A stretch of DNA of 38,150 bases, taken from contig PFMK01000083.1 in assembly GCA_002785215.1 (NCBI GenBank), forward strand, positions 1 to 38,150, given 5' to 3'. The notes beneath the pieces are model-generated. The model had not been told where the DNA came from, searched no databases, and saw nothing but the letters and a program-made list of their open reading frames with translations. The first letter of the stretch is position 1, and each line of letters begins with the position of its first letter. The position numbers were made by a program, and so were the translations under genes. This DNA comes from Candidatus Gottesmanbacteria bacterium CG_4_10_14_0_8_um_filter_37_24. Its GTDB lineage: Bacteria; Patescibacteriota; Microgenomatia; 2-02-FULL-39-11. Below are positions 12,636 through 15,600 of this stretch, piece by piece.

Positions 12636-15600
12636 TTATTTTACTACCAACCAACCACCTTCAGAATGCCCTGAGACATCAGGGATATACATCTGATACG
12701 CTTGAGCAGGAGGATGATGGTAGCGTCCGGGTGTAGTAGCTCTCACACGGTAGCTTATTTCATATACACCAGCGGGTAAGTAGTTAGCAAACAATGTCGT
12801 TCGGTCATCATGATATTCTTTATGCTCAAAATAAAGAAGTTGATTACCTTCTTCTTTTAAGATTGGTCTTTCTTTATTTAAAACACTGACATTTTTAAGA
12901 CTTTCATTTACTGATTCAAGGCCTGCTGGTAGAATGTCTTCGATAACCACAAAATGCCTTTCTTCAGGAGCAACGATAATAAGACGCACCCAACTTTCAG
13001 AATTTTCATTGATTGTATCAATCGGAAGTATATGTCCTTTACTATCTACAAACTCCCTTACAACAACCATTCCTTGTTCCAAAGGTTTAATTTCTGTGAA
13101 TGGTAGATAATATTTAAGATTGATGTTGTAATAGAGGTTACCTTCGCCACTTTTGGTAATCCTTAAATTACTTTCTCCCCCGATATTGAAGTCGGAAATG
13201 GATATTACATATTCCTGTAGTTTTAACAGATCATCTTTTGTAAACTTACCTTCCTTCAGTATTTTTCCATTAAGCTCAAGCCGATAATTTTCATTGACTT
13301 TCTGATCTCCTTTGCCCAGAAGCTGGGAAGAAATTGCCTTGATTACAGCAGCGGTATCACGGGTGGTTAACCAATGGTTATCGGTTCTTATAGACATCAG
13401 ATATCTTACTACTTCCGAAATAAGGGGGTTATTTTTGTCAAACCGGGTGATCGCTTCAAGGATACTTGCGGTGGCCGTAGTATTGCTACCCATGATACGA
13501 TAATCACTTTTAGGCTCTTCCCAGTGAGTTGTGGTAGCTGTTTTCTTACCAAGACTTATCAACTCAGCATAAAGCCGCTTTGCCTTACTGTCCATACCAG
13601 AAATATCTTTCATAGCTAATGCAAGATACGACCTTCCTTCTAAAGAGAGTTCAAAACGCCGGTCAAACAGATTAGAAGCATAAGAAGACAAATTCACATT
13701 TCTTTCTTTTAGAACATAAAGAATATATGCTTGAGTATATAGAGACAATTCTTTCCCACCTCTGGACAATTGACTCTCCAGATAGTTCTGTGCCCGTTTT
13801 AGAGTCTGATCAGCTACGGTAAAATTGTCCATTTTCGCTTCAGAGAGAGCTAAGAAGGCATATGCCGTCAGGAAGGTATCACTTTCATATTCAATCCACC
13901 AGCCCCAACCACCATCCGCATGTTGCTGGTTGTTCAGTCGTTGAATACCGTCGTTGATTACATCAACAAGTTGCTTTGTTTCAAGTAAACCGCTTTTATC
14001 GATTTTCGCATTTTGCAGAATTCTATGTACGAAAACTGCAGGCAAAAGCCTGCTGGTTATTTGTTCTGTGCAGTAATAAGGATAAGTTAAAAGATATGGT
14101 AGTGCGTTAATACTATCGCTGCCTAAAGAAGGTGAAAAACTTACACTCGCTGCGCCCTGCATTGGATCTAATTCCTTGGGTAATACGATTTCTTCAGAAG
14201 CGGTATCCTTTGCCTGACCTGATGTTGCTACCACTTCAGGAACGCTATATGACTTAATTGGCAAGGTCATTTCGACTGCATCTTGGGTAGTCTTATCTGC
14301 ACCTTCAACTACCAGTCTAATCTTAGCTGAGGCAACGTTGTTTGCCACTGTCACCCAAGTAAGTTTTTCTTGAGCTCCGTCGGCTAATACTAGCTGTTTT
14401 GATTTCTCATCAGTAATTTGTAAACCATCACTTTCAATTTTTGCTGTAAGAGTTTGTGTGTCCCCGCTTGTATTTACCACAATTGCACCCAATTTTGCTT
14501 CGTCCCCAATAGAAAGGAATCTGGGCAGGAAAGGTCTGATTAATACATCACGACTCACGGTAACCTCTGATACTTTTGAACCGAAAGCTGCTTCCTCCGA
14601 GTTGGCAATTGCTGCTAATCTCCATGTTGTAAGGTTGTCAGGAAGCGGAATTTCAACTTCTGCCTTACCCTCATTGTTGGTTTTATGAGTTGGATTCCAA
14701 TATGCAGTATCAGGAAAATCACTTCTGGAAGAATCGTTACCTCCTTTTTGGTTATGAACATAAATATTGCCCGCAAAATATGTTCGATATTTTTCGATTT
14801 CTAAGTTATATACTGCAAAATCTCCTCGGGTTTGTTCAATTGAAAACACTTTAATCAATTGGTTATTCCTATCCAGTAAATAATCGCCAACTTCAACTTC
14901 TCCTGCAATTATCCATTTTCTATTCACATATAACCTATGAACGGGAGTAACACGAAGCTCTCCGTTTATAATGAGGTATTGATCAACATCGTGTTTATAA
15001 GTCTTAGTTACCTTAGCTTCAATTAGTTTGGAAGAATTTTCACTTTCTCTGGTTAATACAACATCTCCAACCTTGACATCCTTAATGTTCCTATATATTC
15101 CGCCTTGCATTAAAATTGGAGTATCTCCTGTAAAGCATCCGCCTCCGCTTCCACCTTTTGCTCCAAGATTTGTGTTTGCATTTATCCGATCAATCGAGAT
15201 GGTTAAAAGCTGAGAGGTCGAAACCTCAAGATTTCTGGGTTGGTAGAAGGTCTTATAAATATCAGGCAATTCAATATTCGATAGATCCCATACTGCCCTA
15301 TCAACCAGACCGACTGCCAGTTCGGTAGAGATGGGATGACCCAATAAGTCTTTTGTTTCTATAGTCGCTTTTAGAGTATCCTTCGGTTTATATTTTTTCT
15401 TGTCCGTTGTAATTCGAACGTCAATTTGCTGCTTTTTATCCGTAACCTTTATCTCTGTATAGCCCATCTTAAATTCCACTGGTTTTTTAACCTGATTACC
15501 ACCTTTTACTAAAACTGCTCCGATGAATGCGTTAGGTGTGTATTTTGGAGGGACAGACATGGTGAAATTGTTAGAGGAATCGCTGGTATCAACAATTTTA

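Follow-up and report, generated by a model that had tools for sequence, protein, structure and literature searches.

We analysed positions 1 to 38,150 of contig PFMK01000083.1 from Candidatus Gottesmanbacteria bacterium CG_4_10_14_0_8_um_filter_37_24 (assembly GCA_002785215.1; Patescibacteriota, Microgenomatia), and refer to this whole stretch of 38,150 nucleotides as the window. Its minus strand carries one long open reading frame (ORF) for an alpha-2-macroglobulin (A2M) with an intact thioester motif and, well upstream of that motif in the chain, a 129-residue Hint domain. A previous reading of the letters alone, called here the sequence-only reading, had proposed that this Hint cuts the bait of its own A2M in response to some cue and turns the protein into a protease-independent covalent trap or adhesin. 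Judged from alignments and a structure model, the Hint does occupy the bait position, and the combination of A2M and Hint is, on the homologues compared here, a conserved family trait of Patescibacteria A2Ms and not unique to this genome.

The landmarks of the Hint read CFTGD...VTPVH...VYNLEI...VHN/QKGGNDSSRSDFPDTAYW, and in the translation its two ends (marked by slashes) fall at NLGAKGGSGGG/CFTGDTPI...RVTPVH...AVYNLEIEKYRTYFAGNIYVHN/QKGGNDSSRSDFPDTAYWNP. PT-HINT (PF07591) passed its Pfam cut-off of 27.7 bits with a score of 46.2 (E 6.8e-12) and reached 51.7 bits when the genome was scanned, with weaker matches to Vint, Hint and Intein_splicing on the same domain. A family profile, A1, built from 28 sequences over residues 1100-1560 and searched against PDB sequences, matched the bacterial intein-like (BIL) domain of Clostridium thermocellum (2lwy) at E 2e-19 and BIL2 of Tetrahymena BUBL1 (6tmm, 6y75) at E ~2e-17, and RecA mini-inteins at only E ~1e-8. 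In an AlphaFold model of residues 1100-1560 (mean pLDDT 81, pTM 0.51) the Hint, at model residues 210-338, reached pLDDT values of about 85-95, and Foldseek superposed it on 2lwy with a target-normalised TM-score of 0.85, an rmsd of 1.8 Å and 29% identity, and on 6y75 with a TM-score of 0.81 (6y75 and 6tmm ~0.8). The Pfam score and the match to 2lwy in both profile and fold bear out the proposal that a Hint domain is inserted in this A2M.

The catalytic residues listed in the sequence-only reading are also all in place: Cys1309, Thr1372 and His1375 of block B, and the terminal His1436-Asn1437, followed at +1 by Gln1438 in place of a nucleophile. At 129 residues the domain is a minimal Hint with no endonuclease. 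By these features it is of the BIL type A/PT-HINT kind, type A being defined by a C-terminal His-Asn, unlike type B, in the description given by PMC4031507. It departs from canonical class 1 inteins both in its +1 residue, which is Gln and not Cys, Ser or Thr, and in its location, a disordered Gly-rich loop instead of a conserved host site. The CTEQ thioester was likewise correctly read as intact, with its Cys at residue 1664. The whole protein has four cysteines (554, 560, 1309 and 1664), none of the other three near Cys1309 in sequence, and we found no obvious disulfide switch by Cys1309 and no other indication of the thiol/redox, pH or metal cue that had been suggested, though the Cys pattern is not evidence against the other cues.

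The position of the Hint was read from three alignments. In phmmer, VHNQKGGNDSSRSDFPDTAYW of the window protein aligned to residues 721-741 of human A2M (VHVEEPHTETVRKYFPETWIW), pairing R1446 with R732 and F1449 with F735, two residues of the human alpha'NT segment, the plug threaded through the MG2-MG3-LNK channel. N1442 aligned to residue 12 of the C3 alpha' chain, and the Salmonella A2M aligned to 917 and then again from 972, with the Hint inside the unaligned gap (918-971). Because R1446 and F1449 match R732 and F735, and because the Salmonella alignment opens at the Hint, we place the domain in the bait, just before the RxxF motif, where the sequence-only reading had put it; the bait was thus located via human A2M and C3, the residue numbers of the E. 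coli A2M (ECAM) bait not having been found in PMC3328433. Eight residues lead from the end of the Hint to the plug arginine R1446, and disordered linkers flank the domain in the AlphaFold model, 25 residues long on the N side and short on the C side. On these alignments the slot is topologically that of the anaphylatoxin domain in C3 and C5. The comparison matters in light of what PMC9352918 sets out for the A2M family: the alpha'NT is the plug, any discontinuity of the bait, and not mere extension, triggers the conformational change, and a bait of Gly and Ser only still functions (also PMC9181621). In its account of complement factors, a folded anaphylatoxin (ANA) domain fills the bait slot and is cut by furin on its N side, the N-side cut being maturation and the C-side cut activation (section 6).

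The host protein is otherwise a full type 1 bacterial A2M with a complete set of MG, BRD, TED and MG10 domains. Pfam found four Big_5 domains, bMG3, MG2, bMG5/6, A2M_BRD (residues 1114-1259), PT-HINT (1323-1437), A2M (1452-1538), TED and bMG10, and the best PDB relatives are the Salmonella and E. coli A2Ms (E 2.7e-40, the Salmonella value, and below). The start codon is uncertain, with in-frame ATGs at Met1, 5, 30 and 66; residue numbers here follow the first ATG, and Met66, just ahead of the membrane anchor, may be the true start. Residues 66-90 form a probable signal anchor, and with this predicted anchor we infer that the A2M body is extracytoplasmic (Table 1). Directly upstream lies a class A penicillin-binding protein of the PBP1C type; PBP1C is the classical partner of thioester-type bacterial A2Ms. 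Among five other Hint-bearing genomes tested, BiPBP_C was found near the Hint in one (G012, ~4 kb from the Hint), and the four without it at the locus have shorter A2Ms (~1700-1800 aa); among the genomes checked, PBP1C stands beside the A2M only in the window and in G012, both with large A2Ms (~2100-2200 aa). The locus lies between two P-type ATPase genes, one of which encodes two heavy-metal-associated domains, and two methyltransferase genes lie downstream of the A2M gene. The source genome (1.28 Mb in 114 contigs, 82% complete) holds a single PT-HINT and a single A2M domain in the genome scan, so the Hint is not a spreading element in its own genome.

Table 1. Positions of the A2M gene, its Hint domain and neighbouring features in the window.
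Feature	Position	Strand	Basis or remark
A2M gene	12636..19061	minus	one ORF, 2141 aa counted from first ATG
65 residues preceding the hydrophobic anchor	18867..19061	minus	ORF reading
Hydrophobic stretch, residues 66-90	18792..18866	minus	hydropathy scan of the 110 N-terminal residues; no other such stretch found there
N-side disordered Gly-rich linker, residues 1282-1308	15138..15218	minus	pLDDT <50 at model residues 183-207 (protein 1282-1306)
Hint domain, residues 1309-1437, 129 aa	14751..15137	minus	Pfam, AlphaFold, profile search, Foldseek
Cys1309, first Hint residue, predicted N-S acyl shift nucleophile; Gly1308 before	15135..15137	minus	conserved in homologues
Block B, T1372-x-x-H1375 (VTPVH)	14937..14948	minus	invariant in 28-row alignment A1; >=95% of 101 rows
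His1436-Asn1437, C-terminal end of Hint, predicted Asn cyclisation site	14751..14756 (Asn1437 = 14751..14753)	minus	101/101
Gln1438 (+1), Lys1439 (+2)	14745..14750	minus	Gly-Gly in Hint-less allele
C-side linker and alpha'NT plug motif, residues 1440-1455 (GGNDSSRSDFPDTAYW)	14697..14744	minus	R and F invariant; low pLDDT at model residues 340-351 (protein 1439-1450)
Polymorphic cassette, Hint and ~50 downstream codons	14595..15137	minus	differs from P0048: substitutions; contig-graph bubble and joint in X13, X22
Thioester motif C1664-T-E-Q	14061..14072	minus	CxEQ intact
Class A penicillin-binding protein, PBP1C type, directly upstream of A2M	19117..21576	minus	Pfam Transgly, Transpeptidase, BiPBP_C
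P-type ATPase	7477..10023	plus	
P-type ATPase	24445..27798	minus	
Methyltransferase gene	10063..10698		downstream of A2M gene
Methyltransferase gene	11086..12378		downstream of A2M gene

A search restricted to residues 1230-1520 gave 435 matches among 2587 candidates, and we aligned the best 120; this listing, like that of a search with the Hint alone, ranks Hint-bearing proteins first, and proportions drawn from either are biased accordingly. Among the 120 rows (query included) the Hint stands at the same site in 101 and is absent from 18, and the remaining protein, P0106, ends within it. P0106 is a 1349-aa homologue on a 215-kb contig that stops in mid-Hint (...KTYKH), which a frameshift, a gap in the assembly or a gene split in two may explain. 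In all 101 Hint-bearing rows Cys1, Phe2 and the terminal His-Asn are present, as are Thr and His of block B in at least 95%. The junctions have Gly at -1 in 100/101, Lys at +2 in 100/101, Gly at +3 in 99/101 and Gln, Asp or Glu at +1 in 99/101 (Q81, D12, E6, C1, K1). Homologues among the matches listed are named as Microgenomates-group lineages of the Candidate Phyla Radiation (CPR). At least three subfamilies of Hint-bearing A2Ms can be told apart: one of ~2000-2350 aa with Big_5 domains, which includes the window protein; one of ~1670-1780 aa with CVEQ; and one of ~1770-1900 aa (proteins P0141-P0228) in which GDRVDQ(K) replaces G-CVEQ(T) and the +1 residue is mostly Asp, so that the thioester is gone and the Hint is kept.

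The survey of genomes that the sequence-only reading called for shows the combination to be recurrent. Of 301 genomes sampled from the window's class, 35 encode an A2M domain; the Hint directly precedes it within one ORF in 22 of these and is missing in 13. Eight other genomes of this sample have related Hints in other, smaller ORFs. A 401-genome sample of the phylum gave a full-length match in 17 genomes (ORFs of 1079-2301 aa), and the loci fetched from other classes showed the same A2M context in 13 of 13. Among the best 80 loci of named genomes, 42 are Hint-bearing, mostly under CPR names (Roizman-, Davies-, Collier-, Moran-, Uhr-, Parcu-, Peri- and Saccharibacteria, and WWE3), while the Hint is absent from all 28 loci labelled Chloroflexota. 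Sixteen of the 42 are titled Gammaproteobacteria, Pseudomonadales, Nevskiaceae, Bdellovibrionales or Bathyarchaeia (the doubtful titles include those of loci L035, L038, L039, L041, L042, L044, L049 and L050), but these titles look unreliable and we do not accept a spread outside the CPR on their account.

With the Hint alone as query, 8437 proteins in the full library matched at E <=0.001 and 96 at <=1e-30. The best 150 held 146 newly returned representatives, 71 of them in an A2M context, and within these 71 the +1 residue is Gln, Asp or Glu in 64 and the +2 residue Lys in 69. Members of this Hint clade outside A2Ms (n=125) have Lys at +1 in 52 and at +2 in 40. The nearest of these are C-terminal PT-HINTs of RHS-repeat or small proteins and tandem Hints in multi-domain proteins. 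P0122-P0145 are environmental proteins with 2-11 Hints head to tail, joined via ...HN-K-G/CF... junctions and adjoined by PKD, Metallophos or Tim44-like domains. The closest non-A2M relatives (P0169, P0172, P0181, P0146, P0147, P0186 and P0199, 50-60% identity) have their Hint at the extreme C-terminus, with 4-12 residues past His-Asn and in some cases after RHS repeats; this layout is Hedgehog-like, and by its arrangement only the N-side reaction can matter there.

Sequence divergence indicates that the Hint is an ancient, selected part of Patescibacteria A2Ms. Hint identity follows host identity (Spearman 0.77), and between deep subfamilies the Hint keeps 48-56% identity while the host drops to 22-28%. 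Among close pairs it is the host that is conserved a little better, e.g., 90% vs 85% for the Hint. Nonsynonymous divergence of the Hint is low (pN 0.11-0.30), and since synonymous sites are saturated in seven of the eight pairs, only pN and one pair are usable; that single unsaturated pair gives a dN/dS of 0.028 for the Hint against 0.10 for its flanks. These values point to strong purifying selection, and the invariant Cys1 and His-Asn together with the conserved TxxH argue that the Hint chemistry is in use. In a FastTree phylogeny of the host (114 rows, Hint and linker columns removed; P0106, P0057, P0062, P0065, P0078 and P0096 dropped as truncated; long-branch warning for P0117), the Hint is present in each of the two deep clades and on the branches at the base of the large one. 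Eight state changes, at least six of them forced by supported branches, are required to place the 17 rows without Hint, all within one crown clade, and a second tree of 63 rows requires nine. The simplest history would be one old gain of the Hint followed by loss; because both deep clades are Hint-bearing, which is the sole basis for the root, change is read as loss instead of gain. A single Hint-less cassette spread by recombination could mimic many losses. Unlike classic inteins, the insert sits in a variable, deletion-tolerant loop.

Our favoured but tentative reading, which might well hold and might quite as well fail, is that the Hint processes itself mainly by cleavage and so breaks the bait chain with no protease involved. 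Once the protein is exported and folded, Cys1309 would carry out an N-S acyl shift at the Gly1308-Cys1309 bond, yielding a Gly1308~Cys1309 thioester, and Asn1437 would cyclise at the Asn1437-Gln1438 bond. Because Gln at +1 permits no transesterification, chain breaks would be the main products, with hydrolysis outcompeting ligation; the BILs without a +1 nucleophile studied in PMC4031507 and PMC7664689 are described as yielding chiefly cleavage products. Such a self-cut, which might be constitutive, slow in the manner of a timer, or cued, would fall at the site at which A2M is attacked by proteases and C3, C4 and C5 by furin and convertases, and the fragments predicted from Met66 are an anchored N-fragment of ~139 kDa, a Hint of 15 kDa and a C-fragment of 79 kDa. 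If only the N side were broken, the Hint would stay on the alpha'NT as a bulky stopper resembling an anaphylatoxin. The protein, now in two chains, would remain native because a 15 kDa domain on the alpha'NT cannot pass the channel, the situation of C3 after furin. A break on the C side would free the alpha'NT, the conformational change would fire and CTEQ would be exposed without a protease; firing by a protease would still be possible, solely via a cut in the short C-side linker.

The idea of a self-cut bait that fires a thioester trap fits the bait-discontinuity rule of PMC9352918, and the proposed terminal cleavage has its precedent in BILs. Several points nevertheless weigh against the proposal. 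Every reaction step is inferred from sequence and by analogy; type A BILs can also splice, by aminolysis, according to PMC4031507; and a suicide inhibitor would be wasted if its self-firing were constitutive. The Hint is moreover polymorphic among close relatives. P0048 (2012 aa), a Hint-less homologue, is the window protein minus exactly residues 1309-1437, plus 10 substitutions, eight of which lie at residues 1438-1489 and include the change of Gln-Lys to Gly-Gly; its linker has the same length as the one that hypothetical splicing would leave in the window protein. We compared Logan contigs of four aquifer or groundwater runs (X1, X13, X22 and X23) over 13800..16200, with likeness set at 90, and found that 14745 is joined to 15138 in a single short contig of X13 (99 nt, depth 6.8) and another of X22 (125 nt, depth 5.65). 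The joint skips 392 nt and puts five other letters in their place, so that on balance 387 nt, or 129 codons, are lost. Over the 64-90 nt next to it each of the two contigs shows eight differences, and both runs also contain the Hint-bearing path at similar depth (9.15 in X13, 7.14 in X22). The joint was not seen in the Logan contigs of X1 and X23, which cannot show absence. The joint contigs appear to match the P0048 prediction, though their anchoring side is just 30 nt and a related strain or organism is possible as their source. Such co-occurring alleles are easier to explain by splicing, because both would then give similar mature proteins. The Hint, together with ~50 codons downstream of it, behaves like a cassette that strains living side by side exchange through recombination. 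A covariation of an Arg pair with the Hint (R1446-R1447 in 13/17 Hint-less vs 3/46 Hint-bearing rows) was considered and rejected: the independent-pair sign test is not significant (p 0.125), and the pairs are not independent because the flank probably moves with the cassette. A second micro-diverse spot lies at 14162..14297 (residues ~1589-1634, shortly before the thioester), where the contigs of X1 and X22 break and one 122-nt contig carries 12 differences.

Residues at +1 and at the thioester add two further points on this side. Though +1 is mostly Gln, Asp or Glu wherever the combination recurs, it is Ser in four of the 13 loci from other classes (L026, L028, L029 and L032; VHNSKG...), Ser or Thr in 2/71 of the A2M-context representatives and Cys in 1/101 rows, and in these canonical splicing would be possible; the +1 Ser A2M Hints of other Patescibacteria classes may be true splicing inteins. 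Two of these loci, L029 and L032, have Ala or Ser at -1. The thioester Cys, for its part, is absent from the thioester column in 39 of 69 evaluable diverse Hint-bearing representatives and in 8/101 close ones. Since the Hint is kept in thioester-less A2Ms, activation of the thioester cannot be its general role; these losses show that the general job of the Hint would lie in chain continuity or conformation, not in covalent capture as such.

The strongest rival is that the Hint is a self-removing, intein-like passenger that splices out to leave an ordinary single-chain A2M with a Gly-rich bait and adds no function of its own, either by Asn cyclisation followed by attack of the Gln1438 alpha-amine on the Gly1308 thioester, or by the canonical route where +1 is Ser, Thr or Cys. 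We consider it somewhat unlikely. It would account well for the near-identical alleles with and without Hint and their equal linker length, the joint next to the Hint-bearing path in X13 and X22, the at least 6-9 changes of Hint state inside one crown clade and the +1 Ser of the out-of-class loci, it has the known aminolysis of type A BILs (PMC4031507) to draw on, and persistence in thioester-less A2Ms is passenger-like. Yet cleavage dominates in the BILs without a +1 nucleophile described by PMC4031507 and PMC7664689, and +1 is Gln, Asp or Glu in ~90-98% of members whereas efficient splicing favours Ser, Thr or Cys. A passenger of 129 aa would also have no homing endonuclease to drive its spread, and it stands as a single copy in its own genome. 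Loss should be easy in a variable Gly-rich loop, yet the Hint is kept in 22/35 A2M genomes of the class and across the CPR under strong purifying selection. That same conservation speaks against a catalytically silent insert that would stay unprocessed and form no more than a bulky bait or spacer, a reading which we find scarcely credible: the model suggests that a folded domain between flexible linkers is structurally tolerated, and a bait extension without a break does not itself fire A2M in the description of PMC9352918, but Cys1, Phe2 and His-Asn are held in 101/101 and block B in at least 95%, over host identities down to 22-28%.

The conserved Lys after the Hint raises the further possibility of a ligation like that of BUBL proteins, in which the Gly1308 thioester would be resolved by a lysine epsilon-amine. 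If this were Lys1439, the bait would be re-closed by an isopeptide bond; if it were a Lys of another protein, the target would be tied to the anchored N-fragment, which would then be a second warhead. Tetrahymena BIL2, a top match in sequence and fold, is reported in PMC8616854 to link a Lys epsilon-amine to the upstream C-terminus, and Gly at -1 (100/101, inside a GGG run), Lys at +2 (100/101 rows, 69/71 representatives) and the replacement of Gln-Lys by Gly-Gly in the Hint-less allele are in keeping with such chemistry, as is the frequency of Lys at +1 or +2 in non-A2M members of the clade (52 and 40 of 125). The parallel is one of analogy only, however, the +2 region is modelled at low confidence and lends no geometric support, and the Lys could instead aid Asn cyclisation or folding or be a protease site; we judge this ligation very unlikely. 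A composite is conceivable in which the Hint is both a built-in convertase and a second warhead, the N-side cut maturing a C3-like form, Asn cyclisation self-firing it, and lysine amines resolving the Gly1308 thioester to latch the bait (Lys1439) or to tether host or prey proteins to the anchored N-fragment of an episymbiont, but we hold it to be quite unlikely. Nothing in our analysis points to the adhesin role that had been raised for the protein.

Both modules are already known, and their combination at this site is new as far as the searched literature goes. To our knowledge, the members of the A2M and complement superfamily described so far are all armed by an outside protease that cuts one loop. 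We found no description of a Hint or BIL domain within an A2M in the open-access literature searched, supplements excluded; where PMC8080830 treats the A2M proteins of the CPR it calls them possibly defensive, and that part of the paper mentions no Hint. Should the Hint cleave, this would be the first A2M-family protein to mature or fire autonomously. It would then put the plug-in-channel model of triggering to a natural test, give BIL/PT-HINT domains a new biological role besides the release of toxins, and possibly serve as a template for covalent traps that can be switched and need no protease. Should it splice, it would be an intein-like element of unusual persistence in a loop that is not conserved, and its natural presence and absence alleles in one population would make a good system for studying persistence without a homing endonuclease. 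In either case a module of the self-cutting kind is conserved at the trigger loop across a large radiation of ultra-small, largely uncultured bacteria, and the loci with Ser at +1 provide a natural comparison for the Gln, Asp and Glu forms.

The nearest known systems each share one half of this arrangement. With BIL type A and PT-HINT domains (2lwy) the window's Hint has in common its size, fold, Cys1, TxxH, His-Asn, the lack of a +1 nucleophile and of an endonuclease, and residence in a variable region of an exported protein; it differs in that its host is the bait loop of an A2M, whereas the known contexts we saw are RHS and pretoxin proteins and tandem Hint arrays, and in that it keeps one and the same site throughout a large family of hosts, where its HN-[QDE]-K-G junction is conserved. 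BIL2 of Tetrahymena thermophila BUBL1 is close in profile and fold and is likewise preceded by Gly, but has a eukaryotic ubiquitin-like host, and isopeptide formation, known for BIL2 from the account in PMC8616854, extends to the A2M Hint by analogy only. Class 1 mini-inteins such as that of RecA share the HINT fold, Cys1, His-Asn and presence/absence polymorphism among close relatives, and are set apart by the mostly non-Cys/Ser/Thr +1 residue, the non-conserved loop and the weaker similarity (E ~1e-8) of the A2M Hint. Among A2Ms, E. coli ECAM/YfhM and the Salmonella A2M have the same MG, BRD, TED and MG10 domains, CxEQ thioester, membrane anchoring and PBP1C neighbour; theirs, however, is a plain bait loop, whereas the window protein has the Hint there, is probably held by a signal anchor and is extended at its N-terminal end by four Big_5 domains. 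In C3, C4 and C5, too, a folded domain sits in the slot just before the alpha'NT, with one cut expected per side. The Hint fold is unrelated to the anaphylatoxin, and the Hint would make both cuts itself, so the parallel that we draw with complement is one of putative function.

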